Assembly: GCA_028718635.1 (NCBI GenBank)
Contig: JAQULK010000001.1
Span: 152,626 to 216,625 of the forward strand
Length of the DNA: 64,000 nt
Reading direction: 5' to 3'
DNA from: Minisyncoccota bacterium
GTDB taxonomy: Bacteria > Patescibacteriota > Minisyncoccia > Phycocordibacterales > UBA9973
A program made the position numbers and the translations under genes. The notes below the pieces were generated by a model. It saw only the letters and a program-made list of their open reading frames with translations. It ran no database searches and had not been told where the DNA came from. Positions 6,276-63,699 of the stretch are shown here, in pieces (the stretch's first letter is position 1; the number at the start of each line of letters is the position of its first letter).

Positions 6276-8789
6276 ATGCTAAAACAGAAAACAGATAATA
6301 GTAAAACATTAGTATTACTAGATGCTCATGCGATAATCCACCGCGCTTATCATGCCTTGCCGGAATTTTTGTCTTCCAAAGGCGAGCCGACGGGGGCGCT
6401 TTATGGGCTTTCCACTATGCTGATGAAAATAATTACTGAGTTAAAGCCGGATTATATTGTGGCCTGTTATGACTTGCCCCAAAAAACTTTTAGGCACGAA
6501 GCGCATGATGGATATAAGGCAGGCCGAGCGAAAACCGAAGATGCCTTGATAATGCAATTAAAAAATTCTCGCCAGATTTTTGACGCTTTTGATATACCTA
6601 TTTATGATGCGCCTGGTTTCGAAGCGGATGATGTTTTGGGGACTATCGTGGAGAAATATAAAAAAGATAAAAATTTGAAAATCATTATTGCATCAGGAGA
6701 TATGGATACTATGCAATTGGTGGATGATAAAAAAGTGCAAGTTTACACTTTGAAAAAAGGCATCAATGATACTATTTTGTACGATGAAGATGCGGTTGTA
6801 AATCGATTTCATTTTAAACCAAAATTCCTTCCTGATTTTAAAGGATTGCGCGGCGACCCTTCAGATAATATCATCGGCATTAAAGGCGTCGGCGAAAAAA
6901 CTGCTGAAATCTTAATCTCAAAATTTGGAACCATTGAAGAAATTTATAAAAAAATTAAACAAGACGAAGAAGTTTTTAAAAAAGCAGGCATCAGTCCTAG
7001 GATGATTGAGTTGCTCAAAAATAACGAGGAAGAGGCTTTATTTTCAAAAATTCTAGCGACGATCAGAACTGACACGCCGATAGATTTTGTTTTGCCTGAA
7101 AAGACTTTTTGGGAAAAGGTGGATTTTAAAAGAATTGAACAAATTTTTTCAACTTTTGAATTTAGAAGCTTAGTAACGCGTTTAAAAAACTTTTTTGAGA
7201 ATAATGGGAATAAGAATAAACAAGAGCCCCCAGAGGATTATGCTCGCCGTCATTCGCACTCCGTCTTGGAAGGGCAAGATCCATCTGGTCGCAGCGAAGA
7301 TTCCTCTGAGCATAATCCTCTGGGGGCTGAACCCATAGATTCGCAAAAACTTCAAGAAGCCAGTATCGCCCTTTGGCTTGTCAATTCTGATATACCGAAT
7401 CCCAGCTTGGAAGATATCTTATTTTTTACCCATACGAACTCTTTTGAAAAAGCTTATGAACATATTTTCAAAAAACTGAAAGAAAATAATTTGGAGAAAG
7501 TGTATGAAGAAATAGAAAAACCCATTATCCCGATAGTGAAAAAAATGGAGGATTATGGGATTTTGATAGATAAAAAATATTTTGAAAAATTGTCTGCTGA
7601 ATACCATAAAGAATTGGATATTTTAACTAAAAAAATATATGCGCAAGCTGGTGTTGAATTTAATATAAATTCACCCAAACAATTGGGAGAAATACTTTTT
7701 GGTAAAATGGGCATAAAATCACCAGGTAAAAATGGAGCAAAAAAAAGTGCAAACGGCGGATTTTCTACTAAGGTTTCAATTTTAGAAGAACTGGAAGAAG
7801 AAAATCCGATTATAAAAGAAATATTATTTTATCGAGAATTGCAGAAATTGCTTTCTACATATATTGATGTCATTCCTAAAATGGTGGATGCTAACGGCCG
7901 TTTACACACAAAGTTTTTGCAAAATGGTACCACGACGGGAAGATTTTCTTCTCAGAATCCTAATTTGCAAAATTTACCTATCAAAACAGAACTTGGTAGA
8001 AGGATCCGAGGCGGTTTTATTGCGCCCAAAGGTTGCAAACTAGTTGCTTTTGACTATAGTCAGATCGAATTACGCATGGCTGCAATGCTTTCTGGAGATG
8101 AAAAAATGACCCAAGTTTTCCGAGATAAAAAAGATATTCATGCGGGAGTTGCTTCTTTTGTTTTTGGTGTGCCAATAGAAAAAGTAGATAGTGAAATGCG
8201 CCGAAAAGCAAAAGTGATAAATTTCGGAATTATTTATGGTATGGGGGTTTCTGCTCTGCGAAAGAATCTCGTCCGACCAAAATCGGACTCCGACACAAGG
8301 TCGGAGGTGGTAACTCGCGAGGAGGCGCAAAGATTTTATGACAATTACTTCAATCAATTTTCTGGCGTGCGGGATTATTTAGAAAAAGTAAAAAAGTTTG
8401 TGCGAGAAAACGCTTATACCGAAACTTTATTCGGCAGACGCAGGAATTTTCCAAACATAAACTCCAGAATTCCATTTTTGAAAAATATGGCGGAGCGTAC
8501 CGCGACCAATGCTCCGCTCCAGGGAACAGCCGCCGATATTATCAAATTAGCCATACGATATGCGGAAGAAGATTTGAAAAAAGCCGGCTTGTCAGAAAGC
8601 ACTCATCTGATACTTCAAATTCATGATGAACTCGTTTACGAAGTGGAAGAAAGTGTACTCTCAAAAGCTGAAAAAATAATAATGGGTGCGATGGAAGGGG
8701 TGCTTCAAAGATCATATATACATTATAAAACGGATATTCCGCTCGAAGCGCACTTTGGTTTTGGGGACAATCTCAGGGAAGTCAAATAG
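6276..8789 (+). CDS. polA: DNA polymerase I (5'-3' exonuclease plus polymerase domains; no recognisable 3'-5' exonuclease domain)
   Basis: N-terminal 5' nuclease domain (LLDAHAIIHRAYHAL..., GIKGVGEKTA), C-terminal family A polymerase motifs (DYSQIELR, KAKVINFGIIYGM, ILQIHDELVYE). Two GC-rich in-frame insertions noted. Confidence 0.9.
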   Translation: MLKQKTDNSKTLVLLDAHAIIHRAYHALPEFLSSKGEPTGALYGLSTMLMKIITELKPDYIVACYDLPQKTFRHEAHDGYKAGRAKTEDALIMQLKNSRQIFDAFDIPIYDAPGFEADDVLGTIVEKYKKDKNLKIIIASGDMDTMQLVDDKKVQVYTLKKGINDTILYDEDAVVNRFHFKPKFLPDFKGLRGDPSDNIIGIKGVGEKTAEILISKFGTIEEIYKKIKQDEEVFKKAGISPRMIELLKNNEEEALFSKILATIRTDTPIDFVLPEKTFWEKVDFKRIEQIFSTFEFRSLVTRLKNFFENNGNKNKQEPPEDYARRHSHSVLEGQDPSGRSEDSSEHNPLGAEPIDSQKLQEASIALWLVNSDIPNPSLEDILFFTHTNSFEKAYEHIFKKLKENNLEKVYEEIEKPIIPIVKKMEDYGILIDKKYFEKLSAEYHKELDILTKKIYAQAGVEFNINSPKQLGEILFGKMGIKSPGKNGAKKSANGGFSTKVSILEELEEENPIIKEILFYRELQKLLSTYIDVIPKMVDANGRLHTKFLQNGTTTGRFSSQNPNLQNLPIKTELGRRIRGGFIAPKGCKLVAFDYSQIELRMAAMLSGDEKMTQVFRDKKDIHAGVASFVFGVPIEKVDSEMRRKAKVINFGIIYGMGVSALRKNLVRPKSDSDTRSEVVTREEAQRFYDNYFNQFSGVRDYLEKVKKFVRENAYTETLFGRRRNFPNINSRIPFLKNMAERTATNAPLQGTAADIIKLAIRYAEEDLKKAGLSESTHLILQIHDELVYEVEESVLSKAEKIIMGAMEGVLQRSYIHYKTDIPLEAHFGFGDNLREVK
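7225..7328 (+). repeat. 104-bp element with perfect 21-bp terminal inverted repeats inserted in-frame in the polA inter-domain linker
   Basis: AGCCCCCAGAGGATTATGCTC (7225..7245) and its exact reverse complement GAGCATAATCCTCTGGGGGCT (7308..7328); GC-rich relative to its surroundings. Confidence 0.75.
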
Positions 8790-10082: not shown

Positions 10083-12329
10083 ATGTTGAAAAATCAACCT
10101 GCCCGCCCTCCTAAGTCAGGAGCAGGCGGGGGAAGTATCTTTAAATTACATAAACCTTTTGAGCCAGCGGGGGATCAGCCAGTGGCTATCAGAGCGCTTG
10201 TGCAAGGTCTGTCTAAGGGAATGAAAAAGCAAACATTACTAGGAGCCACCGGCACAGGCAAGACTTTTACTATGGCAAATGTCATAGCTCAATATAACAA
10301 ACCAACTTTGGTAATAGCTCACAACAAAACCCTTGCCGCCCAGTTGGCCCAAGAATTTCGTGAATTTTTTCCAGATTCCGCAGTGCATTATTTTGTTTCT
10401 TATTATGATTATTATCAACCAGAAGCCTACATGCCTGCATCGGATACTTATATTGAAAAAGATGCCTCTATCAATAAAGAAATAGACATACTTCGCCATG
10501 CTTCCACGCAAGCGCTTTTAACAAGACGAGATGTGATTATAGTTGCCTCGGTTTCTTGTATTTATGGTTTGGGTTCTCCGGAAGAATATGAAAAAGTTAA
10601 TTTAAAACTTGAAATTGGTATGACGATGGACAGATTGACCTTAATGAAGAAATTAATTCAAATTCATTTTGAACGTACCAATGCAGATCTTACTCCTGGA
10701 ACTTTTCGTTCCATCGGTTCGCGGGTGGAATTTATGCCAGTTTCGGAAAGTATAATGTACCAAGTTGAAATGCAGGGCGGGAGAATTTCCAAAATAACAA
10801 AAGTTGATCCAGTTTCTTCTATTATAATTTCTGAAGAAAAGAATATTTTTATTTTCCCAGCAAAACATTTTATTACTGAAGATGCAAAAAAGAAAAAAGC
10901 GCTTATAGAAATTAAAAAAGAGCTAGCACAACAGCTAAAAAAATTTGAAAAAGAAGGGAAACTTTTAGAGGCTGAACGTATAAAAAGAAGAACTAATTAT
11001 GATTTGGCGATGATAAAAGAAGCTGGTTATTGCAACGGCATAGAAAATTATTCTAGGCACTTATCAGGGAAAAAAGAAGGCGAACCGCCAGAAACATTGC
11101 TTTCCTATTTCCCTAAGACTGGTTTTCTTACGATTATTGATGAATCGCATGTCACAATTCCACAACTACAAGGAATGTACGCAGGAGATGCTTCAAGAAA
11201 AAACACTTTAGTAGAATATGGATTTAGACTACCCTCCGCAAAAGATAACAGACCTTTAAAATTCAATGAGTTTGAAAATAGAATATATAATTCTATTTAT
11301 ACTTCCGCTACACCTGCAAAATTTGAGAAATCAGAAAGTAATCAAATAGTGGAACAAATTATTCGTCCGACAGGGCTTGTGGACCCAGAGACAATAGTGC
11401 GACCAGTTTCCGAAGGCGCATTTCCTCCCCTCCTTAACAAGGAGGGGAATGAGGGGAGGTTCTTAATTAATTCACCTCACCCCAACCCTCTCCTTAGTAA
11501 GGAGAGGGGGAATAACTACCCTGGCCAGATTCAAGATTTTATTCAAGAAACAGAAAAAACAATTGCAAAAGGTTTCAGGGTTCTAGCGACGACGTTGACA
11601 AAAAAAATGGCAGAGGATCTTTCTGTTTATTTAAAGGACAAAAAGATCAAAGCAGAATATCTACACAGTGATGTAAAAACGATAGACAGGATAAAAATTT
11701 TAACCCAATTCCGCAAAGGCGAATTTGATGTTTTAGTTGGCGTAAATTTACTTCGTGAAGGGTTGGATTTGCCAGAAGTTGCTCTGATTGGAATTCTAGA
11801 TGCCGACAAGGCAGGTTTTTTACGATCTGAAACATCTTTAATTCAAACGATTGGCCGTGCGGCTCGCAATAGTGAGGGTAAGGTTATTCTTTATGCCGAC
11901 ATTATGACTCCCGCGATGGATTATGCCCTAAAAGAAACTGCTCGTCGCAGAAATATTCAGCTTGCTTACAACAAAAAACATGGCATTACCCCAAAAACAA
12001 TTATGAAAAAGATAAAGGATATCACCGAAGAAATGGAAAGCGAACATGGGAAAGTTGTAAACGCCGAGCTCCAGCTTGATTTGGAAGTTTTTAAGCGCGC
12101 TTATGCGAAAGAATTTAAAAAAGAAAAGAAACAAAATCGGAAAATACCGAACACCAGCTTGGGGCAGTCTTATTTGTCTGATGAAGAGATAGGCAATTTA
12201 ATCTATGAAAAAATAATAAAAATGAAAGAAAAAGAAATGAACAAGGCAGTCAAAGAGTTAGATTTCGAGACTGCGGCGATACTAAGAGACGAGATCGGAG
12301 TTTTGCGAATGCGTACAGAAAAAAAATAG
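10083..12329 (+). CDS. uvrB: Excinuclease ABC subunit B
   Basis: GATGTGKTFTMA Walker A, helicase motifs, beta-hairpin region and a C-terminal UVR domain. Contains an in-frame insertion of about 32 aa between IVRP and GQIQDF. Confidence 0.95.
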   Translation: MLKNQPARPPKSGAGGGSIFKLHKPFEPAGDQPVAIRALVQGLSKGMKKQTLLGATGTGKTFTMANVIAQYNKPTLVIAHNKTLAAQLAQEFREFFPDSAVHYFVSYYDYYQPEAYMPASDTYIEKDASINKEIDILRHASTQALLTRRDVIIVASVSCIYGLGSPEEYEKVNLKLEIGMTMDRLTLMKKLIQIHFERTNADLTPGTFRSIGSRVEFMPVSESIMYQVEMQGGRISKITKVDPVSSIIISEEKNIFIFPAKHFITEDAKKKKALIEIKKELAQQLKKFEKEGKLLEAERIKRRTNYDLAMIKEAGYCNGIENYSRHLSGKKEGEPPETLLSYFPKTGFLTIIDESHVTIPQLQGMYAGDASRKNTLVEYGFRLPSAKDNRPLKFNEFENRIYNSIYTSATPAKFEKSESNQIVEQIIRPTGLVDPETIVRPVSEGAFPPLLNKEGNEGRFLINSPHPNPLLSKERGNNYPGQIQDFIQETEKTIAKGFRVLATTLTKKMAEDLSVYLKDKKIKAEYLHSDVKTIDRIKILTQFRKGEFDVLVGVNLLREGLDLPEVALIGILDADKAGFLRSETSLIQTIGRAARNSEGKVILYADIMTPAMDYALKETARRRNIQLAYNKKHGITPKTIMKKIKDITEEMESEHGKVVNAELQLDLEVFKRAYAKEFKKEKKQNRKIPNTSLGQSYLSDEEIGNLIYEKIIKMKEKEMNKAVKELDFETAAILRDEIGVLRMRTEKK
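11420..11515 (+). repeat. Two tandem GC-rich palindromic mini-elements (CCCCTCCTTAACAAGGAGGGG and CCTCACCCCAACCCTCTCCTTAGTAAGGAGAGGGGG) inserted in-frame in uvrB
   Basis: Perfect hairpin palindromes; they encode VSEGAFPPLLNKEGNEGRFLINSPHPNPLLSKERGNNYP, which is absent from canonical UvrB between RP and GQI. Confidence 0.8.
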
Positions 12330-12487: not shown

Positions 12488-15148
12488 ATGAAAAAAGATT
12501 TTCAAGACAAAATAATAGTAAAAGGCGCACGAACCCATAATTTAAAGAATATAAATGTGGAAATGCCTCGTAATAAAATGATAGCCATTACTGGTGTTTC
12601 TGGTTCTGGAAAATCATCTTTGGCTTTTGATACCATTTTTGCCGAAGGACAACGCCGATACGTGGAGTCTCTTTCTTCTTATGCGCGACAATTTTTAAAC
12701 CAAATGCCTAAACCTGATGTGGATGAGATCACGGGTCTTTCTCCTGCAATATCTATTGATCAAAAATCTCGTTCAAATAATCCGCGCTCGACTGTGGCGA
12801 CGATTACAGAGATCTATGATTACTTGCGAGTGATGTATGCGCGCATTGGGCATCCACATTGTCCTTTGTGTGGCGAAGAAATTAAAAAACTTTCCAATGA
12901 AGAAATTTTAAATTTTGTTTTGGAAAAGTTGAAAACACCCTCCTTGATTAAGGAGGGTGTAGGGGGTGGTAATTCCAAGAAATCACCACCTCGCCCTTCG
13001 GGCACTCCTCCTCAAAAAGGAGGAGATAAAATTCGTAAGGTTATGGGAGTCGAATGGGATGAAACAGAAATCAGTATTTTTTCACCAGTAATCAGGGGAA
13101 GAAAAGGGGAATATTATCAACTGCTTTATGATTTGCTTGGAAAAGGTTTTGCCGAAATTCGTCTTGATGGGATGATGAAAAAACTTCGCGAGCAAATAAC
13201 TCTTTCTAAAAACAAAGCACACAATATTGATATTCTAGTGGATCATTTTGCTCTACATGAGTTTACGGATGATAAGGACGGTAGTAGAATGCGTCTTTCT
13301 GAGGCTCTAGAACGTGCGCTTCTCGAGTCTGATGGTTTAGTAACTATAAAAATCGGCGATGAGGAATTTATTATGTCTGCAAAATTCGCTTGTAAGAATG
13401 ACGGTTTTTCTTTTCCAGAAGTGGAGCCGAGATTATTTTCTTTCAATTCTCCTTATGGTGCCTGTCCAGCTTGTAATGGCCTTGGTTCAAAATATTTTAT
13501 GGGAGATGAACCTTGTGAAACTTGCCATGGCGCGCGTTTACGCTCTGAAGCCTTAAATGTTTTTTTAGAGGCTTCCAAGAAGAAGGTAAACATATTAGAT
13601 CTTGCTTCTCTTTCTATAAAAGACGCATATACTTTTTTCAAAAACTTAAAACTCTCAGAACAAGAGAAGGAAATATCGGTGCCAGTCGTTCGGGAGATAG
13701 AAGCCAGACTTCAATTTATGCTGGACGTAGGTTTGGATTATTTGCAGTTGTCTCGCAAGGCGAACACTCTCTCTGGCGGAGAAGCGCAGCGTATCCGCTT
13801 GGCTTCTCAGCTTGGTTCGAGGCTCGTCGGCGCGCTTTATGTGCTCGATGAACCCACGATCGGACTTCACCAGCGAGACAACGATCGTTTGATAAAAACA
13901 CTTCAAAATTTACGTGATTTAGGCAATACAATTTTAATTGTAGAACATGATGAGGATACTATATATGCTTCGGATTATATCGTAGATATAGGACCGAAGG
14001 CCGGGGTGCACGGCGGGGAAGTGGTTGTTTCCGGTTATTTAGAAGATCTATTAACTGCAAAAAAGAACACAAATAATTCTCGAACACTTAGTTATTTGCG
14101 CGGAGAAACAAAAATAGAAATTCCTAAAAAACGGCGCCATCCTAAAGGCGCGCTTCGAATTGCCGGAGGAAATATTTTTAATATTAACAACCTTAATGTA
14201 GAAGTGCCTCTCGGAGTAATGACATCTATCACTGGTGTTTCTGGTTCCGGAAAAAGTTCTTTTATGTATGAGATTCTTTATAAAAATCTTCAAGCCCGCT
14301 TTGAGCGAAAGTATCGCACAGCCAAGATTTTTAATTGTTCCTCATTTTCTGGGACTGAATATCTATCCAGAGTTATTTTGATTGATCAATCGCCCATAGG
14401 CAGGACTCCGCGTTCAAATATTGTTACTTATACAGGAGCCTTCACGCATATCCGAGATCTTTTTGCTTCGACCGAAGAAGCGCGCTTGCGAGGATGGAAA
14501 GCAAATCGTTTTTCTTTCAATGTGAAAGGTGGTCGTTGTGAGGCCTGCGAAGGCAATGGTGAGATAGCTGTCGAAATGCATTTTTTGCCGACGGTTTATG
14601 TCACTTGCGATGTATGTGATGGAAAACGTTTTGATAAAGAGACGCTTACTGTAAAATACAAGAAAAAAAATATTTACGAAGTCCTGCATATGACTGTAGA
14701 AAATGGCCTTACTTTTTTCAAAGATATTCCGGCGATTTCCGATAGACTGCAGACCCTCTTTGATGTAGGGCTTGGTTACTTGGAACTCGGCCAATCAGCT
14801 ACAACGCTCTCTGGCGGGGAAGCGCAACGAGTAAAAATAAGTAGCGAGCTTTATCGTCCGCATTTGGAAAAAACTATTTATCTTTTAGATGAACCGACTG
14901 TGGGGCTTCATTATGATGACGTGCAGAAACTTTTGGAGGTTTTAAATAAATTGGTATCTCATGGCAATACGGTTGTCCTAATTGAACACAACCTTGATAT
15001 TGTGAAAAGTTCAGATTACATTATAGATATTGGTCCAGAAGGAGGAGTAGACGGAGGTAAAATTGTTGCCAAAGGCACGCCGGAAGAAGTGGCTGGAAAC
15101 AGCAAATCACACACTGGCAAATACTTAAGAAGAGTTTTGAGAAAATAA
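12488..15148 (+). CDS. uvrA: Excinuclease ABC subunit A
   Basis: Two ABC ATPase modules ([12 protein letters not shown] and [10 protein letters not shown]), zinc fingers, and ABC signature LSGGE twice. Start set at the ATG at 12488 ([21 protein letters not shown]) by alignment to the UvrA N-terminus. The ORF-track start at 12410 is a GTG. Confidence 0.9.
12935..13026 (+). repeat. Three small GC-rich palindromes inserted in-frame in uvrA
   Basis: CACCCTCCTTGATTAAGGAGGGTG, GGTGGTAATTCCAAGAAATCACCACC and CCTCCTCAAAAAGGAGGAG; the encoded segment [30 protein letters not shown] is absent from canonical UvrA. Confidence 0.75.
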
Positions 15149-29225: not shown

Positions 29226-31310
29226 TTAATGCTCTATTTTAGTGGTGATAGTTTTCTTCGTAAATGGTTCGGTATAACCAAACAAATATCGTGCCAAGAA
29301 GATGAGAACGAGGATCAGAACGATTAGCAAGAGCCAGCCGAATAGATTTGTCGGGAAGAATCCAGCCCAGAAAGCGTTTGCTCCGAGGGGTACAACAATT
29401 TCATTTTCTGGATTACTCCAAACTTGTGCGGAAACATTTGCGCTTACTGATTGGTTTTGACCGGAAGGATCAGTGTAGTTCAAAGTTGCAGGGAAATTTA
29501 AGTTCGTTCCAGCAGGAATATTTTCTCGCACTCGAGTCCTGATGGTTACTGTCCCTTTGCCATTTGCTTTGAGTGTTCCTAGATTGAAGATTAAGGTATT
29601 GCCAGAGATAATCGGATTATTTGGATTAGAAGACAGATAATCTACTTCAAAAGGAAGATTTATTTGCAGATTAAGATTGGTAATTGACCCTGTGCCAATA
29701 TTTTGATAACTCACAGTGTAATTAATCTCATCTCCTGGGCGCGGTCTGGTGTTGTCTATGGTAGGAACTATTGGTTGATTGCGATCGATAGAAGAAGTGA
29801 TAAGCACGAGCGAAGTCGGAGTAGGTTTTGGACCAACGGGATTTCGAACACTTATTGTTTCTGAATCAGTAGCAGATCCAAAACTATTGCTACAGGTAAG
29901 GGTATAAGATTTACTACTCGTTAGTGATCCAGTGAAAAAACTTCCCGGACCAATACTTTTTGCTCCTGCCCAGCCGACAGATCCACCGCTTGCATAACAA
30001 GAAGTTGCATTGGTGGTAATCCAGCGAACAGTGGCAGTTCCATTATAAGGAACACTCACTTTATCTGAATAGACTGTTACCGTAGGTTGGTTATTTACAG
30101 CCCTATAGATACAAGGCAATACCCCTCTGTAATTTATAGCGTTAGGGTCTTGGCATACCTGAATATAATTATTGTAGGTACAAGGCAATACTCCCCCATA
30201 ATTATTAGCATTTCTGTCTAAGCAAGTTTGCTGTACTTGATTCACATATACCGTCGCAGAAGCGGTGGCACTCAAGCCGTTCGTTCCGTAACAAGTAATG
30301 CTGTAGGTGGTAGTGACATTTGGCACGACAATTCCAGAACCGGAAGTGGCATTACTGTTCATCCAGTAACCGGAACAGGAAGTAGCATTGGTAGAATACC
30401 AGGTCAAGGTAGAGTTTTGTCCAGATTGGATACTTGAAGGGCTAGCGTACAGAGTAACGGTAGGATTTGCGTTTTGGTATCTGCAAGGCAATGAACCACC
30501 GTAGTTTATCGCATTCGGATCTTGGCAAGTCTGTTGTGCTTGATTCACGTACACAGTAGCTTGTGCTGTAGCGCTCAAGCCGCTGGCGCCGTAACAAGTG
30601 ATACTGTATGTGGTGGTAATATTTGGTACGACAATACCGAAACCATTCGTAGCGGTACTTGAAGTCCAGTATGCGGAACAGGAAGTTGCGTTTGTGGAAT
30701 TCCAGGTCAAATTAGAGTTTTGTCCAGATTGGATAGTCGTCGGATTAGCATTCAAGGTAACAGTGGGTTGCTGAACTGGGCAAGGTGCAGTTGTATATGA
30801 TTGACTAGATGGTCCAGAACAATAGGCTCCTCCGTTAGCTGGAGCTGGATTAGTACAAGTGCGAGTTTGAGTGCCGGTGTATCCACATTGAGTAGACTGA
30901 GGACTCCAATCACTCCAGCCTCCGTTTATGGGAGTTGGGGTTGGGGTACAAGCGGGAGTGGTAATAGATTTAATACCACCAGTGTTAGTGCCGTAATTAT
31001 TTGTTACTATGAGTTCGAAATAATAGGTGGTACTTGGAGACAGGTTAGCGACAAATTGTTCAATTGGAAAAGTTCCTTCTGTATAAAAATATTTTGTCTC
31101 AGTTACCATTCCTCCACCGTTTTGCACGGTAGTAAAATCTGGACTGTATATAAACCTAGCATAGGCAGGAGGGGTGCCGGTAGTTACGTCACCAACAAAG
31201 GTTGCACTATTGCAAGTCAAAGCGGAAGCCTTAGATGGAATTATAAAAAAGCTAAAGAGTGCAAAGACACTCAATATCAACCCGATCGACAATTTTATTT
31301 TTTTATTCAT
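29226..31310 (-). CDS. Surface protein with signal peptide, Ig-like tandem repeats, DUF11-like domain and C-terminal TM anchor
   Basis: Signal peptide MNKKIKLSIGLILSVFALFSFFIIPSKASA; three copies of an 80-aa repeat (QPTVT..A.P..IQSGQNS.LTW.STNATSC..YW...); DUF11-like segment; C-terminal hydrophobic helix. Tandem DNA repeats of about 250 bp lie inside the gene. Confidence 0.7.
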   Translation of the reverse strand: MNKKIKLSIGLILSVFALFSFFIIPSKASALTCNSATFVGDVTTGTPPAYARFIYSPDFTTVQNGGGMVTETKYFYTEGTFPIEQFVANLSPSTTYYFELIVTNNYGTNTGGIKSITTPACTPTPTPINGGWSDWSPQSTQCGYTGTQTRTCTNPAPANGGAYCSGPSSQSYTTAPCPVQQPTVTLNANPTTIQSGQNSNLTWNSTNATSCSAYWTSSTATNGFGIVVPNITTTYSITCYGASGLSATAQATVYVNQAQQTCQDPNAINYGGSLPCRYQNANPTVTLYASPSSIQSGQNSTLTWYSTNATSCSGYWMNSNATSGSGIVVPNVTTTYSITCYGTNGLSATASATVYVNQVQQTCLDRNANNYGGVLPCTYNNYIQVCQDPNAINYRGVLPCIYRAVNNQPTVTVYSDKVSVPYNGTATVRWITTNATSCYASGGSVGWAGAKSIGPGSFFTGSLTSSKSYTLTCSNSFGSATDSETISVRNPVGPKPTPTSLVLITSSIDRNQPIVPTIDNTRPRPGDEINYTVSYQNIGTGSITNLNLQINLPFEVDYLSSNPNNPIISGNTLIFNLGTLKANGKGTVTIRTRVRENIPAGTNLNFPATLNYTDPSGQNQSVSANVSAQVWSNPENEIVVPLGANAFWAGFFPTNLFGWLLLIVLILVLIFLARYLFGYTEPFTKKTITTKIEH
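29880..30700. repeat. Tandem ~250-bp direct repeats (2 full plus 1 partial) within the surface protein gene 29226..31310
   Basis: Long near-identical DNA blocks (e.g. ...CAAGGCAATGAACCACCGTAGTTTATCGCATTCGGATCTTGGCAAGTCTG... vs ...CAAGGCAATACTCCCCCATAATTATTAGCATTTCTGTCTAAGCAAGTTTG...) encoding the repeated QPTVT...TW.STNATSC module. Confidence 0.6.
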
Positions 31311-32641: not shown

Positions 32642-32716
32642 TGGTGCCCTCGGCAGGAATCGAACCTGCATCACAACTTCCGCAAAGTTGCGTCCTATCC
32701 ATTGAACGACGAAGGC
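32642..32716 (-). tRNA. tRNA-Arg (anticodon reads GCG as parsed; CCA encoded)
   Basis: Cloverleaf on the minus strand: acceptor GCCTTCG/CGAGGGC, anticodon stem CAACT/AGTTG with loop TTGCGGA, T arm GCAGGTTCGATTCCTGC. Confidence 0.7.
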
Positions 32717-32849
32717 ATAATTTCTTTGGTAGTTTTAGATTAACAGTTTTTTGTTTTAAGGTAAAGATGCAACCCCCTAAATCCCCCTTGTCAGGGGGAC
32801 TATAAGAATTTTCCCTCCTTGATAAGGGAGGGCAGGGAGGGTTGTATTT

Positions 32850-33344
32850 CTAAAACCCCAAGGCCTCCATTATTTTTTCTGAAGCATGTTCTTTCATTTC
32901 CACTTCTGGAATATTTTTTGAAAGCATTATGGAGTGAATATCTTCTGCTATTGCTTCAGCTATTGGGATAGAGAGAATAGGCATAAAAGCTCTTTCTGAA
33001 TGAATGAAAAGGATTGGTTTAATACCTGCTTCAGGATGTTCTCCTAATTGAACCCAAAAGGATTTTATATTTTCAAAAGGATAAAGGCGGTTTCTAATGA
33101 TCAAGCCCTTTTGATTTAATTCATAGGTGATCGTATCTGGTTTTTTAATGGCAAAAAATCCGAGCAGGATTCCAGCAAGAATAATTAAAGCTGCAAAAAA
33201 ATAATTTTCAAAAATAATAGAAGCGATGGAGCTTGTCACCACAATGATGCCGAGCGCCCAAAACCAATCCGAGGTTCGATCTTTCTCTTCGTATTCCAAG
33301 GCAGACCAAACTAATTTTTCATCTGATCTTTCGATTATTTCCAT
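32850..33344 (-). CDS. Hypothetical membrane protein (2 TM)
   Basis: ORF with two hydrophobic helices. Its ATG is provided by the end of a MITE-like repeat. Confidence 0.5.
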   Translation of the reverse strand: MEIIERSDEKLVWSALEYEEKDRTSDWFWALGIIVVTSSIASIIFENYFFAALIILAGILLGFFAIKKPDTITYELNQKGLIIRNRLYPFENIKSFWVQLGEHPEAGIKPILFIHSERAFMPILSIPIAEAIAEDIHSIMLSKNIPEVEMKEHASEKIMEALGF

Positions 33345-45509: not shown

Positions 45510-45524
45510 GAGAGAGAGAGAGAG
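45510..45524 (+). repeat. (GA)7 dinucleotide microsatellite abutting the GTG start of the beta-helix surface protein gene
   Basis: GAGAGAGAGAGAGAG immediately followed by GTGAATGAC. Confidence 0.8.
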
Positions 45525-48142
45525 TGAATGACGCTCGCCAATTTTGTCATCCTGAACTTGTTTCAGGATCTAATGCGTTTGCCAAAATAATAAAACTTTT
45601 CCGTTTCATTTTTTTCTTCTCGATATTTCTGGGAAGCTTTTTTGTTTTGGCAAACGAAGCAAGCGCGGCGACGTATTATGTGGATGCGACTCTTGGAAAG
45701 GATACATATAATGGTATAACCACAACTATAAATGATGGAGCAAGTGAAGGTCCATGGAAAACACTAACTAAAGTAAATGCCGCGCTGAATGCCGCTTCTA
45801 TTCATGCTGGTGATAGTGTTTTATTTAAAGCAGGGGAGACTTTCTTTGGCTATTTGTATGTTAAGGTAACGGGAACGGTAGGAAATATATTAACATTTGA
45901 TTCCTATGGAAGTGGAAATAAACCTATAATCGACGCTACTGGAAATAATAGCGGTATCGATCTTCGTGGAATAAATTATGTTACGTTTAATAATTTGGAT
46001 GTTAGAAATGCAACATTCCAAGGATACTTTTTTCTCAATGGAAATGACCACATAACAATAAATAATGGAAGTATATCTTCTTCTGCAAAGGCTATCCATC
46101 TCTATAACAATACAATTTCAAATCTAACAATTTCAAATCTAAATGCCAGTAATAATACATATGGTATTTATGGATTTGCCGGGGTTACTGTTAACACATT
46201 GTCCATATCCAATAGCCATTTCGACGACAACACATCAGAAGGTTTTTTCACCGATGGCACTGCGAACGGGAGTAATTTTACGATAACAGATACCACCATG
46301 TCCCGTAATGGGATCGGATCTGATAAAAATGGATTTTTACTACAAGGGACCGGCAGTACAGTTATCCTTACCAGGGTAACATCAGCCAACAACGGAGGGG
46401 ATGGATTTGGTGTCCATAACACTTGGATTGGTGTTATTTTTGATTATTGTACGGCGGATACTAACGGAACAGACGGGATAGGATCAGATGGAGACGGATT
46501 CAGTTTCCATGAGACTTCTTCTGGAATAATCAGGTATTCAATCAGCAAAAATAATTTAAAAACTGCGATTGCTCACGTTAATAGCTCCGCTGTTGAAATG
46601 TATTATGATCTTTTTTATCATGCAACCAATGGCACCTTGCCGCTTGTTTTATTACAAAATACTGGAAATCATAAATTATATAATAATATTATTTACAGTG
46701 GAAGTCAGACTGGTGATGCAGTAAGCGTTGAAGGGACCGTTGATATGCAAAACAATATAATAGATGGTTTCAATCGTGGCCTTATAAAAACTGGAGGAAC
46801 AATATCCAATGACCATGATATTATTTATGGAGTATTAACTTCTAATTATGTTGGTATTTCTGCCGGTGCTTATTCAATTATACAGGATCCAAAATTTTTT
46901 AATTCCAGTATTTATAACTTTTCCCTTCTCCCCACTTCCCCCGCCATCGACTCTGGCACCGATGTCTCATTAACCACCGACTACGCCGGCAATTCCATCT
47001 ACGGTACGCCCGACATCGGCGCTTATGAATACCAGCCGCCATATACCATGGGCACGGATGCAGTAAACACTTCCACCAGTGTCAGAATGTACGGAGACGA
47101 AAAGTTCAGAAACAAAACCGCCACCACCACGGAAACCACGGCTGATCTCTCAATTACCATTCCCGACTCGGATAAAACCAAGTGGCTGGACATAGCAGTT
47201 TCCACCTGGGACAACTCCGGAACTTATCACAAAACCTGGACGGAAAACACTACCAGCACCATTACCAACACCCTCCATACCATCGGAGACCTGGAACCCA
47301 ACAAATACTACAATGTGTCCGTGGATTCCGTTCTGGGAAACAACATTACCGGCGATAACTGTTCAAACGGCCTCTGTCTTTCCAACGCGGAAGGTAAAAT
47401 ATCTTTTACCTATACTGGTTCATATTCCGAACACACCTTTGACGTGGAAGAAGGAGATAATACCGCCCCCATCCGTTCCGCCGGTTTGCCTTCCGGCAGT
47501 CAACCTGCTGGCACAACGCAAGTAACAATGTCTTTGACCACCGACGAAAACGCCACCTGCAAATACTCCACCTCTGCCGACACCGCTTACGCTTCCATGA
47601 CCGATACCTTTACCACAACTGGCACCCAATCCCATTCCACCACCATTTCCGGTCTCTCCAACGGCAATACATACAATTACTATGTCCGCTGCACTGACGG
47701 CTCAAATGCTAACAGCAACGATTACCCTATTTCTTTTTCCATTACTAACCCTACCGCGCATTCTTCAGGCAACAGTGCTCAGAGTCGAATCAACAATCTG
47801 CTCTCCATGGGCAACTACACCCAAGCGCAACAATTGGCTAATCAATACAATATTTCAATTCCAGTAATTACCACCCCGCCTACAGCACCCCTCCTGAATC
47901 AAGGAGGGGAAAGAAGTGTTAATGCTTACAACTTTGGTCTCTCTGTTCTCAAAAAAGGAAGCAAAGGTGAAGCTGTCAAAGAACTCCAGAAGTTCTTAAA
48001 CCAAGATCTGAAACTAAACTTGAAAATAGATGGCATCTTGGGATCAAAAACAACTATGGCTATCAAACAATACCAAAAAGCGCATAATCTAAAAGTGGAT
48101 GGGGTAGTGGGGGAGAAGACGAAGGGGAGGATGGGGGTGTGA
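45524..48142 (+). CDS. Secreted right-handed beta-helix (pectate-lyase-like repeat) protein with C-terminal peptidoglycan-binding domain
   Basis: Hydrophobic signal-like segment then cleavage-like ANEASAA; many N.T.S..N..I/..N repeats typical of parallel beta-helix; C-terminal PG_binding_1-like segment (KGEAVKELQKFLNQ...IDGILGSKTTMAIKQYQ). GTG start preceded by a (GA)7 repeat. Confidence 0.7.
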   Translation: MNDARQFCHPELVSGSNAFAKIIKLFRFIFFFSIFLGSFFVLANEASAATYYVDATLGKDTYNGITTTINDGASEGPWKTLTKVNAALNAASIHAGDSVLFKAGETFFGYLYVKVTGTVGNILTFDSYGSGNKPIIDATGNNSGIDLRGINYVTFNNLDVRNATFQGYFFLNGNDHITINNGSISSSAKAIHLYNNTISNLTISNLNASNNTYGIYGFAGVTVNTLSISNSHFDDNTSEGFFTDGTANGSNFTITDTTMSRNGIGSDKNGFLLQGTGSTVILTRVTSANNGGDGFGVHNTWIGVIFDYCTADTNGTDGIGSDGDGFSFHETSSGIIRYSISKNNLKTAIAHVNSSAVEMYYDLFYHATNGTLPLVLLQNTGNHKLYNNIIYSGSQTGDAVSVEGTVDMQNNIIDGFNRGLIKTGGTISNDHDIIYGVLTSNYVGISAGAYSIIQDPKFFNSSIYNFSLLPTSPAIDSGTDVSLTTDYAGNSIYGTPDIGAYEYQPPYTMGTDAVNTSTSVRMYGDEKFRNKTATTTETTADLSITIPDSDKTKWLDIAVSTWDNSGTYHKTWTENTTSTITNTLHTIGDLEPNKYYNVSVDSVLGNNITGDNCSNGLCLSNAEGKISFTYTGSYSEHTFDVEEGDNTAPIRSAGLPSGSQPAGTTQVTMSLTTDENATCKYSTSADTAYASMTDTFTTTGTQSHSTTISGLSNGNTYNYYVRCTDGSNANSNDYPISFSITNPTAHSSGNSAQSRINNLLSMGNYTQAQQLANQYNISIPVITTPPTAPLLNQGGERSVNAYNFGLSVLKKGSKGEAVKELQKFLNQDLKLNLKIDGILGSKTTMAIKQYQKAHNLKVDGVVGEKTKGRMGV

Positions 48143-51797: not shown

Positions 51798-51881
51798 ATC
51801 TAAGAAATACTTTCTCACCCCAACCCCTCTCCATAAATTGATTTATGGAGAGGGGAAAGCAAGGGGAGAGGTGAATTAATT

Positions 51882-53585
51882 ATGAATCAAGAAACTAAAT
51901 CCTGCCAAAATTGCCAAAAAGATTTCACGATAGAGCCAGAAGATTTTAATTTCTATGGAAAGATAAAAGTTCCATCGCCCTCTTGGTGTCCAGAATGCCG
52001 AATAGTACGTAGATTTGCTATTCACAATACTTGGAGTTTGTTTTGGCGAAATTGTGAAAAGTGTGGGATTAAAACTCTATCAACTTTTGAACCGGAAACA
52101 AAAATCACAACTTACTGCCAACCTTGCTGGTGGGGAGATTCTTGGGATGGCACAGAGTATGCTATGGACTACGATCCATCGCGTCCGTTTTTGGAACAAT
52201 TAAAAGAGTTGAGTAACAAAACGCCGTATGCTGCGCTTGAAACAGCTTATTTAACATTAAAAAATTCTGATTATTCAAATGATATTGCCTGGAGTAAAGA
52301 TTGTTATTTAGTTTTCTGGGCTGATTATTGTGATACAGTTTTTTACTCTTCTTTATTAAATGGTTTGAAATATAGTGCAGATTGTATTAGGGGATATGAA
52401 TCAGAATTATGTTATGAGTCTATAGGTTTTACGAAAAATTATAGAACTTTTTTTTCCGATGAATGTGATACCTGTGTGGATGTATGGTTTTCGCGTAATT
52501 GTTACGGTTGCACCAATTGCATCGGATGTGTGAACCTTCGTGGAGCTTCTAATTATATTTTTAATGTAAAATATTCTAAAGAAGAATATGCGGAAAAATT
52601 AAAAGAACTCAGTCTAGATTCTTGGAGTAAATTACGCGAGCTTGAAAAAAGAGCGCATGAATTTTGGCTGACTTTACCATATAGAGAATATGATGGCCAT
52701 TCTTTAAATTTAAATGTAACAGGAGAACATGTGTATACATCTAAAAATTCTAAAGAGGTATATGTTGTAAATGGTGCAGAAAATTGTAAATGGACTCAGT
52801 TTATAACAGTTCCTACTGCAAAAGATTGCATGGACTACTCTGGCTGGGGTAACAATTCTTCTCTTATTTATGAATCTGCCACTGTAGGAGAGAACGCGAA
52901 TTCAATTTATTTTTGTTATGGCTGTTGGCCGGATTCTCTTAATCTTCAATATTGTTCTTGGAATATATCCGGCAAAAATAATTTTGGCTGTTTTAATCTA
53001 AAGAGAAAGCAATATTGCATCCTAAATAAACAATATTCCAAAGAAGAATACGAGAAACTGAAAAATGAAATTATCGCAGATATGAAAATAAATCCGTATA
53101 TAGATAAACTGGGACGCAAATATTATTATGGAGAATTTTTTCCATCCGAGTTAAGTAAATTTTCTTATAATAAATCAAATGCCATACGTTTTTTCCCAAA
53201 GACAAAAGAGCAAGCGACCCGTGAAGGGTTTAACTGGAGTGATAGAGAAAATATCGTATATAATATTTCTAAACCAGCAAATTCTTTACCGGAAAAAATT
53301 GCGAATACAGGAGAAGATATCTTAAACGAAGTTATTGAATGTGAAAATTGTGGGAATGGATATAGGGTAGTTCAGGGTGAATATGATTTATTGCGTAAAA
53401 TGAATTTACCTATCCCGCATGAATGTCCCAAATGCCGTGAAATTAAACGATTTGCCAGAATGAATAAACCAAAGTTGCATCACCGAAATTGTATGAAATG
53501 CGGTGTAAATATTTATACCCCTTATTCTCCCGAAAGTCCTAATATTGTGTATTGCGTGAAGTGTTATCAGCAAGAATTTGCTTAA
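51882..53585 (+). CDS. Cys-rich protein of unknown function (paralogue 2)
   Basis: 567 aa. N-terminus CQNCQKDFTIEPEDFNFYGKIKVPSPSWCPECR, C-terminus MNLPIPHECPKCR, internal C.GC.NL...YCILNKQYSKEEYEKL repeats. Collinear homology to 16545..18293. Confidence 0.7.
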   Translation: MNQETKSCQNCQKDFTIEPEDFNFYGKIKVPSPSWCPECRIVRRFAIHNTWSLFWRNCEKCGIKTLSTFEPETKITTYCQPCWWGDSWDGTEYAMDYDPSRPFLEQLKELSNKTPYAALETAYLTLKNSDYSNDIAWSKDCYLVFWADYCDTVFYSSLLNGLKYSADCIRGYESELCYESIGFTKNYRTFFSDECDTCVDVWFSRNCYGCTNCIGCVNLRGASNYIFNVKYSKEEYAEKLKELSLDSWSKLRELEKRAHEFWLTLPYREYDGHSLNLNVTGEHVYTSKNSKEVYVVNGAENCKWTQFITVPTAKDCMDYSGWGNNSSLIYESATVGENANSIYFCYGCWPDSLNLQYCSWNISGKNNFGCFNLKRKQYCILNKQYSKEEYEKLKNEIIADMKINPYIDKLGRKYYYGEFFPSELSKFSYNKSNAIRFFPKTKEQATREGFNWSDRENIVYNISKPANSLPEKIANTGEDILNEVIECENCGNGYRVVQGEYDLLRKMNLPIPHECPKCREIKRFARMNKPKLHHRNCMKCGVNIYTPYSPESPNIVYCVKCYQQEFA

Positions 53586-61645: not shown

Positions 61646-62039
61646 TTATTTTTTAGTGGAGCGGGTTGAGCGTGATATAATATCTGCAAGGAGTTCCTTC
61701 TACATTGCATTATGTTTGTACAAATAGTTTTACACATTGCACATTATGACTTCCGACTCGGAGTCATGATATTATTAAAATATGAAAACCCGACCCAACC
61801 CGCGACCCCACTTCATTGTATTTCTTTTACATGGCATCAAGAGATTAACTACCTCGCTAAACAATCCCAACATTTTCAAACCAGCCCTATTGTTACTTTG
61901 CTCGGATGGGGTAGTGGGGGAGAAGACGAAGGGGAGGATGAATGGGGATATTTAAAGTGCGTTGGACAAGACTCTAACTTGCTTAGCTTGATTACTTGTT
62001 GTTATAATTAAATTATTAAAAATCTAATTAATCTTAATT
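61646..62039 (+). other. GC-richer non-coding or degraded region downstream of the AbiE pair, holding a displaced 36-bp fragment of the PG-binding domain gene tail and a strong hairpin
   Basis: GATGGGGTAGTGGGGGAGAAGACGAAGGGGAGGATG at 61906..61941 is identical to 48104..48139 (3' end of the CDS 45524..48142) but in a different frame. The ORF 61712..62011 has low-complexity translation. Hairpin ATGACTTCCGACTCGGAGTCAT at 61748..61773. Confidence 0.5.
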
Positions 62040-62538: not shown

Positions 62539-63372
62539 ATGGAAATATCGCCAGAACAAAAAGTAAAATTATATAACGGATTAAAGATCGCGCTTATTGT
62601 TTTCTTGGCTGTTGTGGTCGCAAATGCTTTGTTTGATTGTAGAGGCGATAGAGACGAAGATAAAACACCTAACACTATATCTTTTTCTGGGCACGGGGAA
62701 GTCACAGCGGTGCCTGATATAGCGAATATTTATTTTACGATTAGCCAAGATGCAAAAACAGTGAAAGATGCTCAAACGGCAGTGGCAACCATAGAGAAAA
62801 AAGCCTTAGATTTATTGAAAGCAAAAGGGGTGGCAGACAAAGATATTCAGACCGCGAATGCATCCTTTAATCCTAAGTATCAATATCAAAATGCTGTTTG
62901 CCCTCCTGTTCCTGTGGGTGCCGGCACAGCCGGGATTGCAGTTGGCTCAACTTCTCCTTCTTATTGTCCTCCTGGCAGGCAAGTGCTTGTCGGCTATACA
63001 GCAAACGAAAGTATTACGGTAAAAATTAGAAATATCGATTCTGTCGGTGATATTATGCAAGGACTAGGGACAACAGGCGTTTCTGATTTGAACGGCCCTA
63101 ATTTCGCAATTGATAAAGAAGATTCTTTAAAAGCAGAAGCAAGGAAAAAAGCTATTGATGACGCCAAAGCAAAAGCAAAAGTGTTGGCAAAAGATTTAGG
63201 AGTACGTTTGGGAAAAATTACTTCTTTCAGTGAAAATGGAAATACTCCGATTATGTATACCGCGAGCGCTATGATGAAAGATAGTGCGGGGGCAGCTCCG
63301 GCACCGGCAGTGATTCCAAAAGGGGAGAACACCATCAGCTCGGATGTGACTATAACTTACGAAATAAGGTAG
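62539..63372 (+). CDS. SIMPL domain (DUF541, YggE-like) periplasmic protein
   Basis: ISFSGHGEVTAVPDIANIYF...ITVKIRNIDSVGDIM pattern of the SIMPL family. Confidence 0.7.
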   Translation: MEISPEQKVKLYNGLKIALIVFLAVVVANALFDCRGDRDEDKTPNTISFSGHGEVTAVPDIANIYFTISQDAKTVKDAQTAVATIEKKALDLLKAKGVADKDIQTANASFNPKYQYQNAVCPPVPVGAGTAGIAVGSTSPSYCPPGRQVLVGYTANESITVKIRNIDSVGDIMQGLGTTGVSDLNGPNFAIDKEDSLKAEARKKAIDDAKAKAKVLAKDLGVRLGKITSFSENGNTPIMYTASAMMKDSAGAAPAPAVIPKGENTISSDVTITYEIR

Positions 63373-63441
63373 AAAGACCTCACCCCAGCCCTCTCCTTGT
63401 TAAGGAGAGGGGGGTTCATTTGACTATTTGAGCAAAAAGAG

Positions 63442-63472
63442 TATTATTAAGAAAGCCCTTGAAAGGGGGCTT
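63442..63472 (+). terminator. Rho-independent terminator downstream of the SIMPL gene
   Basis: AAAGCCCTTGAAAGGGGGCTTTTTTAAAA: GC-rich stem-loop followed by a T run. Confidence 0.6.
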
Positions 63473-63513
63473 TTTTAAAATAATTTAAAAATCCGCTATA
63501 GGCGGGGAAGTAT

Positions 63514-63699
63514 ATGTCAAAAATCACTGAATACTTAGAAGAAACAAAAACAGAATTAAAACATGTTATCTGGCCATCTAGGAATCAAACTTTATATTAT
63601 ACGCTCTTAGTTATTGTTTTATCCGTGGTGATTGCCTATTATTTAGGTTTTTTTGATTTTATTTTCTCCCAAGTCTTACAAAAAATAATTACCCCTTAA
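63514..63699 (+). CDS. secE: Preprotein translocase subunit SecE
   Basis: 61 aa, ELKHVIWPSRNQ followed by a single TM; lies upstream of nusG as in the conserved secE-nusG arrangement. Confidence 0.75.
   Translation: MSKITEYLEETKTELKHVIWPSRNQTLYYTLLVIVLSVVIAYYLGFFDFIFSQVLQKIITP

Follow-up and report, generated by a model that had tools for sequence, protein, structure and literature searches.

What is a short, GC-rich palindrome doing a few nucleotides past a stop codon in a small Minisyncoccota genome, and why should a nearly identical copy be found in frame inside uvrB? These questions are raised by the sequence at 63378-63414 of a window of 64,000 nt (the whole stretch of DNA analyzed here, ~10% of a 671,958-bp contig of a Candidatus Paceibacteria (CPR) MAG, with a GC content of 37%), for which the original prediction had proposed a family of dispersed palindromic elements.

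A Dispersed Family with Three Blocks per Copy

The copy at 63378-63414 (CCTCACCCCAGCCCTCTCCTTGTTAAGGAGAGGGGGG) starts 6 nt past the TAG stop (63370-63372) of a gene of the Pfam family SIMPL (ORF 62539-63372), with secE (63514-63699) downstream. All the sequences originally quoted were found in the window, and the claimed near identity between this copy and the one in uvrB (11475-11510) holds: the differences are confined to unpaired positions, namely A/G between tail and arm, two loop bases, and the last base. The further copies cited are present at 51813-51876, 32771-32842 (two units), and 47871-47910, those described as lying inside genes are indeed in frame, and to the list can be added a second uvrB unit at 11425-11461 and, in uvrA, the copies at 12936-12972 and 13005-13025 (table 1).

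Our three-block scan called for a pyrimidine arm no shorter than 8 nt, a hairpin in which a single mismatch was allowed, and a third block matching the purine arm in antiparallel orientation by G.G, A.A, or T.A, again with no more than one mismatch; these rules were fixed after the copies had been seen. Nine strand-specific matches at eight loci were obtained in the window, as against 0.05 in block shuffles and 0.075 in Markov-1 sequences, and the predicted excess over background is thus borne out within the window. Perfect GC-rich hairpins number 16 there (1.2 +/- 1.2 in shuffles), and the 19-mer CCTCACCCCARCCCTCTCC, which spans tail and arm, has two matches with up to three mismatches, compared with 0.00 in 100 shuffles. 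The covariance model originally suggested was begun and then replaced by this rule-based scan with shuffle controls, because MAFFT misaligned the 3' arms, loop lengths differing between copies; a pattern search with a fixed 8-nt loop gave no match for the same reason.

Every copy consists of a C/T arm and the A/G arm complementary to it, together with a further G-rich block in mirror symmetry to the latter, so that the original description as a palindrome is right with respect to the complementary arms and falls short as a simple two-arm structure. The third block takes the form either of a G-rich stretch a few bases past the purine arm, as in unit 1 of uvrB (CCCCTCCTT-AAC-AAGGAGGGG-AATGA-GGGGAGG), or of its C-rich complement ahead of the pyrimidine arm, as in the CCTCACCCC tail of the copy at 63378; read on the minus strand, the latter unit becomes Y-loop-R1-CTG-GGGTGAGG. 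An antiparallel third purine block is present at all eight window loci (8-nt arms, at most one mismatch). Across the window and 318 kb of sequence from relatives, the mirror rule for this block finds 25 loci versus 6 for a direct rule at 9-nt arms, and 18 versus 3 at 10-nt arms; at least six sequence-distinct variants follow it. The DNA hairpins by themselves are moderately stable (-6 to -18 kcal/mol in Watson-Crick folding).

Several copies have features of their own. The unit at 51813-51876 reads CTCACCCC-AA-CCCCTCTCC-(AT-rich extended stem and loop)-GGAGAGGGG-AAAGCAA-GGGGAGAGG-TGA, and its subfamily is found at another genomic site in relative L123 (12630-12690); its second G block (51863-51874) lies ~10 nt ahead of the ATG at 51882 and may double as the ribosome-binding site of that ORF. 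The unit at 32771-32800 is flanked by a tRNA gene (32645-32716, minus strand) and an ORF (32850-33344, minus strand), and its hairpin and loop recur identically in frame in uvrB of relative L188. Its neighbor at 32813-32842 is the sole copy in the window that is a canonical G-quadruplex (G4) motif as well (32826-32841). In uvrA, a three-block unit ACACCCTCCTT-GATT-AAGGAGGGTGT-AGGGGGTGG (12936-12972) is followed by three more hairpins as far as CTCCTCCTC-AAAAA-GGAGGAG (13005-13025), and the minus strand of the copy in the beta-helix protein reads TCCCCTCCTT-GATTC-AGGAGGGG-TGCTGTA-GGCGGGGTG. The window also holds two canonical G-quadruplex motifs unrelated to the repeat family, one at 30930-30956 on the plus strand and one on the minus strand at reverse-complement offset 2192 (~61789-61809 in plus-strand coordinates).

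Table 1. Three-block units in the window and related sites in other genomes (L numbers denote loci of other genomes or contigs)
Feature	Position	Strand	Basis or detail
Three-block unit, intergenic	63376..63414	-	three-block scan; DNA hairpin -11.5 kcal/mol, z -2.9
same unit: C-rich third block CCTCACCCC	63378-63386		
same unit: linker AG	63387-63388		
same unit: Y arm CCCTCTCCTT	63389-63398		followed by loop GTT
same unit: R arm AAGGAGAGGG	63402-63411		
Double-sided unit, intergenic	51813..51876	.	three-block scan; -17.9 kcal/mol, z -5.7
Intergenic unit, subfamily TCCCCCT-GACA-AGGGGGA-TT-TAGGGGG	32771..32800	-	three-block scan
Intergenic unit CCCTCCTT-GATA-AGGGAGGG-C-AGGGAGGG	32813..32842	+	three-block scan
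In-frame unit 1 in uvrB, CCCCTCCTT-AAC-AAGGAGGGG-AATGA-GGGGAGGTT	11425..11461	+	peptide PPLLNKEGNEGR
In-frame unit 2 in uvrB, near-twin of 63378-63414	11473..11510	-	peptide SPHPNPLLSKERG; -57.7 kcal/mol
In-frame composite insert in uvrA	12936..13025	+	hairpin and three-block scans
In-frame unit in beta-helix / PG_binding_1 protein (ORF 45524-48142)	47871..47910	-	peptide TTPPTAPLLNQGGE
In-frame units in MurB / ABC-F ATPase / UvrC / PolA of relatives	L141 331-364, L151 1203-1236, L123 15694-15727, L124 16906-16942, L123 841-877		
uvrB site DNA of relatives	L123-L127 and L186-L190		
Type B / type C sites	window 7284-7340 (polA); L124 11006, 11396; L127 6078, 12085; L126 11294		
Strict TMECO pattern outside Proteobacteria	L009, L030, L041, L042, L055, L057, L065, L069, L077, L080		

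Coordinated Change of the Three Blocks

Compared with unit 1 of uvrB in the window, the orthologous unit of L123 carries two substitutions in each of its three blocks: C->T and T->C in the Y arm, A->G and G->A in the R1 arm, and G->A and A->G in the third block. These changes leave the nine triads intact (C-G.G <-> T-A.A at two positions) and break the alternative Watson-Crick hairpin between Y and R2. This coordinated change, seen in one clean orthologous pair, fits a three-strand constraint at the level of DNA and not an SD/anti-SD role in RNA, and it lends indirect support to triplex folding; L186 has one mismatch in the third block. The maintenance of the mirror block points to DNA as well, since a purine-motif DNA triplex cannot form in RNA (PMC4666352). 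Between lineages, the uvrB insert is 87-89% identical, compared with 75-77% for uvrB DNA outside the insert and 51% at third codon positions; this high identity of an in-frame insert could reflect recent independent insertion or gene conversion instead of constraint.

Turnover at Orthologous Sites

For the SIMPL-secE spacer, 58 metagenome loci with a SIMPL ortholog were retrieved, and the spacer was read in 34 of them. It lacks the element in nearly all 34, an 83%-identical relative included: these spacers measure about 1-40 nt between the stop codon and a TTGACT block that is conserved, and it is there that the window has its 37-nt unit inserted. One relative (L159, 55% identical) bears a copy of its own in this spacer, and another (L140) a different three-block unit. 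Adjacent to this insertion site, a promoter-like TTGACT-16-TATTAT is directly followed by a hairpin AGCCCTTGAAAGGGGGC and a T6 run (63420-63478) just upstream of secE-nusG; the block is kept in most Paceibacteria relatives whose spacer was read, and may serve the secE-nusG operon as leader or attenuator.

At the uvrB site (codons 443-479; window 11409-11519), the segment running from RPTGLVDP to TTLTK has a length of 44 aa, or is "empty," in about half of 120 homologs (63/120), and the others show at least seven unrelated types of in-frame palindromic insert at one codon, together with nested alleles and with remnants that look like partial deletions. This codon position is a hot spot of insertion and replacement. 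Three of the insert types (B, C, and E) are each an imperfect palindrome of ~100 nt in the DNA of relatives. When the insert is masked, the nearest UvrB relatives of the window (90-93% identical) bear type B or none, the carriers of its own insert type being more distant. The uvrA site is empty in three of five relatives (L124, L126, L127), occupied by the same composite as in the window in L123, and by an unrelated hairpin in L125. No target-site duplication was seen when filled and empty sites were compared, and the boundaries were fuzzy. It should be noted that L189 (6348-6428, with insert) and L311 (empty) share 96% protein identity in UvrB and only 84% DNA identity. The empty site of L311 reads GAAAAGGGAGATTAC, a purine-rich run resembling the purine arm of the element, and this likeness may point to a preferred target or to microhomology.

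Genomic Placement and In-Frame Copies

Half of the eight loci fall in the intergenic 8% of the window (P = 0.002), which amounts to an ~11-fold higher density than in coding DNA; the other four lie in frame in uvrB (two), uvrA, and the beta-helix protein. An association with gene 3' ends rather than coding regions, as the original prediction had raised, is therefore supported in part, but such an intergenic excess is as expected if selection removes most coding insertions. The family is not strictly intergenic in the relatives either, where 12 of 18 loci lie within long ORFs.

The two units in the uvrB ORF (748 aa) form an inverted pair, the full insert extending over ~11409-11519 (residues 443-479). 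Residues 20-442 and 480-650 of this UvrB align contiguously to chain residues 5-427 and 428-598 of solved structures, so that the 37 inserted residues have no counterpart there and fall between residues 427 and 428; an AlphaFold2 model based on an alignment of 40 sequences is uninformative on the insert (mean pLDDT 48.5). Relatives have in-frame three-block units in MurB, an ABC-F ATPase, UvrC, and PolA, translated in two reading frames (SPHPNPLLxKERG and TSPQPSPERRGG), and the copies in MurB and the ABC-F ATPase indicate that coding insertions are not restricted to genes of excision repair. Like the Rickettsia palindromic elements (RPEs), these are palindromic repeats that stand in frame and free of stops in unrelated conserved genes, and that have no counterpart in homologs.

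A comparison of syntenic polA, uvrA, uvrB, and uvrC across six genomes shows many lineage-specific inserts with a high GC content (0.45-0.74) and strong folding (z -3 to -10), alongside others that lack these properties. Two more lineage-specific, GC-rich inserts with a hairpin fold were seen in the window, one at the N-terminus of uvrB (10098-10130, PARPPKSGAGG; three-block-like at 7-nt arms) and one in polA (8277-8312, PKSDSDTRSEVV). Two further palindromic families, type B (RRRSHSILEGKVLSGRSEYSSE) and type C (GRSGDDGQRKFSAENFRGESE), occur in frame in various genes and sites, among them the window polA, which holds a type-B fragment (SGRSEDSSEH).

The Motif Belongs to a Class Described in Escherichia coli

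Judged by its sequence, the family is a variant, low in GC and with AT at its ends, of the class of "intrastrand triplex motif" called BoxC, PIT, or TMECO; it is not a new family, the motif being that of E. coli (PMC4666352, PMC5100583). The core found in the Paceibacteria, CCCTCACCCCA(A/G)CCCTCTCC..GGAGAGGG, and the order of the three blocks match E. coli BoxC/PIT/TMECO (HPG1/HPG2). BoxC, PIT (potential intrastrand triplex), and TMECO are one and the same, with the pattern CCCTCNCCC-N3-6-GGGNGAGGG-N3-GGGNGAGGG (Holder et al. 2015, PMC4666352), and the "G-quadruplex-hairpin-duplex switch" HPG1/HPG2 is a name for the same E. coli loci (Kaplan et al. 2016, PMC5100583). The class has 23 copies in MG1655, always intergenic, and 3,610 copies across 262 proteobacterial genomes; it forms a triplex (CD, NMR) and stops polymerase in vitro, a stable triplex was unsupported by DMS footprinting in vivo in E. 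coli, and neither promoter nor terminator activity was found in that host (PMC4666352). The same study describes the loci as hypervariable between strains and reports no tie to transposons, phages, or plasmids.

A scan for CACCCCARCC..CTCTCC..GGAGAGG against one genome per species returned at least 120 loci. The matches listed, with a locus GC content of 32-71%, include Pseudomonadota and Chloroflexota, and among them are Pseudomonas, Xanthomonas, Citrobacter, Dehalococcoidia, Planctomycetota, Bacteroidota, Cyanobacteriota, Omnitrophota, Myxococcota, and others. In a profile of 131 copies, the conserved stretch runs from CCCT to G[AG]G and coincides exactly with the three blocks; the flanks are random, and no target duplication was seen in them. 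Following the lead of the Citrobacter copy, we found motif matches in 5,289 of 5,426 complete E. coli genomes; the copy in the ilvC-ppiC spacer is unannotated in MG1655 and corresponds to HPG2 no. 46 in the table of PMC5100583.

The strict published pattern is matched by ~100 of ~140 cross-phylum copies, non-proteobacterial ones included, and has two matches in the E. coli loci; it has none in the window and none in the 318 kb of Paceibacteria loci (382 kb together). The Paceibacteria copies fail it because their outer C-G.G triads are replaced by T-A.A/T (CCCTCTCCTT / AAGGAGAGGG / GGGTGAGGT), and the copy at 11473-11510 fits with three mismatches, all of them at block ends. Strict matches outside the Proteobacteria were seen in Dehalococcoidia, Caldithrix, Omnitrophota, Chloroflexota, Thermodesulfobacteriota, Gastranaerophilales, Muribaculaceae, and Archangium, where some MAG contigs may be mis-binned. 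In Pseudomonas crudilactis (L005 422-752) the motif lies within a 152-bp tandem repeat, and in Citrobacter (L062 2400-2570) it is repeated along with an adjacent terminator-like hairpin; it is therefore part of larger composite repeats in some hosts.

Rfam gave no match to the element: a gathering scan of the window returned six tRNAs and nothing else, and E-value scans of one E. coli and one Pseudomonas copy gave no credible match (best Whalefall-1, 16.9 bits, with a gathering score of 37). No paper was found in an exact-sequence literature search with four 16-mers, and searches on MITE, REP, or palindromic elements in the CPR or Patescibacteria brought up none on the subject either.

A Probable Selfish, Structure-Forming Repeat

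The explanation that we favor, and regard as probable though far from certain, is that of a selfish, structure-forming repeat of the BoxC/TMECO class with fast turnover, which persists where it is tolerated, namely in short spacers and in protein loops that are permissive. The element would have no dedicated host function and act as structure-forming DNA for its own sake, with copies rapidly gained and lost at orthologous sites. When DNA becomes single-stranded in replication or transcription, the blocks may fold into a hairpin or a three-stranded structure, and, by analogy with the literature, the folded structure could lead to polymerase stalling, template switching, deletion, and replacement. 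In a genome that is 92% coding, the survivors would be the copies in short spacers and those that are in frame, stop-free, and placed in tolerant surface loops, such as those of UvrB and UvrA and, in relatives, UvrC, PolA, MurB, and the ABC-F ATPase, in a pattern resembling that of RPEs. As to the way in which copies are made, no target-site duplication, conserved flank, or linked transposase is visible in our data or in PMC4666352. That sequences should be nearly the same in different phyla is not easily accounted for by structure alone, and may point to a sequence-specific partner or to horizontal transfer.

A bolder version, which we consider a long shot, is that the three-block relation is actively maintained in vivo, even in coding sequence, the units thus representing a host-independent class of structure-driven, mobile or self-renewing DNA. 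Such units would spread or be regenerated by polymerase stalling and template switching through the universal replication and repair machinery alone. If true, this would account for near-identical units from E. coli to the CPR without transposase or target duplication, and their frequent presence in uvrA, uvrB, uvrC, and polA might not be accidental; the products of nucleotide-excision-repair genes act on helix distortions such as triplexes.

The Paceibacteria variants that keep the mirror block represent a natural test set, in which triad covariation on a large scale could settle whether there is selection on the third strand. To our knowledge, no function has been assigned to BoxC/TMECO in the ~30 years since it became known, nor has its three-strand fold been proven to matter in cells. 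Our findings extend the range of the motif well past the Proteobacteria reported in 2015. They also provide a second case, after Rickettsia, of palindromic repeats built into essential proteins, again in a lineage with reduced genomes, and bear on the origin of lineage-specific protein insertions in the CPR as well as on gene annotation and alignment in this group.

Alternative Explanations

Among the alternatives, a REP- or MITE-type non-autonomous element, mobilized in trans by a RAYT/IS200-like HUH or other transposase and using the third block as its recognition tail, survives best, although we think it unlikely. REP and IS200/IS605 ends have a conserved single-stranded tail beside a hairpin, an arrangement that the units resemble, and the presence/absence polymorphism of copies is in keeping with mobility of this kind, as are types B and C at the uvrB site, long inverted repeats that recur in several genes in the manner of MITEs. 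The cross-phylum motif is also present in IMG/VR viral contigs (L191-L270 among the matches listed), one of which (L200) carries three copies at a 39-nt period; the curated phage set, however, has only two matches, in the Campylobacter phages MG065686.1 and MG065691.1. We know of no RAYT linked to this motif. Against such an element, the 131 copies show neither a GTAG or CGTC head nor a target-site duplication or conserved flank, the only conserved string (CCCT...G[AG]G) being itself part of the three blocks, at which conservation ends exactly. Moreover, the third block co-varies as the mirror of the purine arm, which a tail recognized by a protein need not do, and the absence of a transposon, phage, or plasmid link in PMC4666352 points the same way.

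A functional RNA element at gene 3' ends, acting as a weak terminator or 3' stabilizer or, through an SD/anti-SD hairpin, on the translation of the next gene, appears improbable to us. All intergenic copies start within 20 nt of a stop codon, and the hairpins at 63389-63411 and 32812-32829 pass a lenient terminator scan; the T-rich tail past 63414, however, is a pre-existing promoter region (-35), present in relatives without the element, a separate hairpin with a T-run lies at 63456-63478, and a T-run (T4) follows only 6 of 131 copies read C-first and 5 of 131 read G-first. The AAGGAG and CTCCTT strings described in the original prediction as SD-like and anti-SD-like are present in the arms, but the SD/anti-SD reading is probably incidental: only the block at 51863-51874 is positioned to serve as an SD, at the proper distance from the ATG at 51882, and the mirror third block has no part in such a hairpin. 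Half of the copies lie mid-ORF in both orientations, where no ribosome-binding site is needed. The lack of an Rfam match and the inactivity of PIT as terminator or promoter in E. coli (PMC4666352) likewise argue against an RNA element.

The G-quadruplex/hairpin/duplex switch proposed as a regulatory element for E. coli HPG1/HPG2, with G4 and hairpin forms seen in vitro by circular dichroism (CD) (PMC5100583), is very unlikely to explain the copies described here. With its four tracts, the cross-phylum consensus GGGAGAGGG-YTG-GGGTGAGGG qualifies as a canonical G4 motif, as does 32826-32841 in the window, but seven of the eight window loci lack four G3 tracts (they have two G3+ tracts, the end G's being changed to A/T) and still keep the mirror relation; G4 potential is therefore not the conserved feature in the Paceibacteria lineage. 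Chance clustering of GC-rich k-mers or an assembly artefact, for which nothing but the low sequence complexity speaks, is effectively refuted and of negligible probability, given nine matches where 0.05 are expected and the presence of the same units at other sites in independent assemblies of different samples.

Comparison with Known Systems

The selfish BoxC/TMECO-class repeat that we favor can be set beside known systems. With REP/REPIN-RAYT (PMC3733652) it shares the short, GC-rich extragenic palindromes, the conserved tail, and the frequent inverted pairs; those elements carry a GTAG/CGTC tag and are species-specific, whereas the element described here has no such tag and is conserved across phyla.

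The likeness to RPEs lies, as far as these are described in the review consulted (Ogata et al. 2000, reviewed in PMC10969869), in palindromic repeats that stand in frame in unrelated housekeeping genes of a small genome, are translated as extra loop peptides, and fall into several families. According to the same review, RPEs measure ~150 bp and form a genus-specific family, whereas the units here measure 35-60 nt (~110 nt when paired in inverted orientation), include a third, mirrored block, and share a cross-phylum motif. We take the RPEs as a functional analogy only, membership by sequence being implausible given the host, the length, and the cross-phylum motif.

With BoxC/TMECO, the family shares the order of C-rich arm, loop, G-rich arm, short loop, and mirror G-rich block, the core CCCTCTCC / GGAGAGGG / GGGTGAGG, the occurrence as single units and inverted pairs, and loci that vary between close relatives with no linked mobility gene. 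It differs in its host, a member of the CPR with 37% GC, and in its density, 0.125 loci/kb in the window versus ~0.005/kb in MG1655 (23 in 4.64 Mb; found with a stricter pattern and given for scale only). Half of the window copies are in frame in genes, whereas those of E. coli are "always intergenic." The CPR variant also differs from HPG1/HPG2 in being mostly without four G3 tracts, so that the G4 reading does not carry over. What was already known is the repeat family itself, as BoxC/TMECO/HPG of E. coli; our analysis adds a CPR host, a variant with AT ends, a high density, coding copies that are in frame, insertion hot spots, a wider taxonomic range, and the triad covariation.
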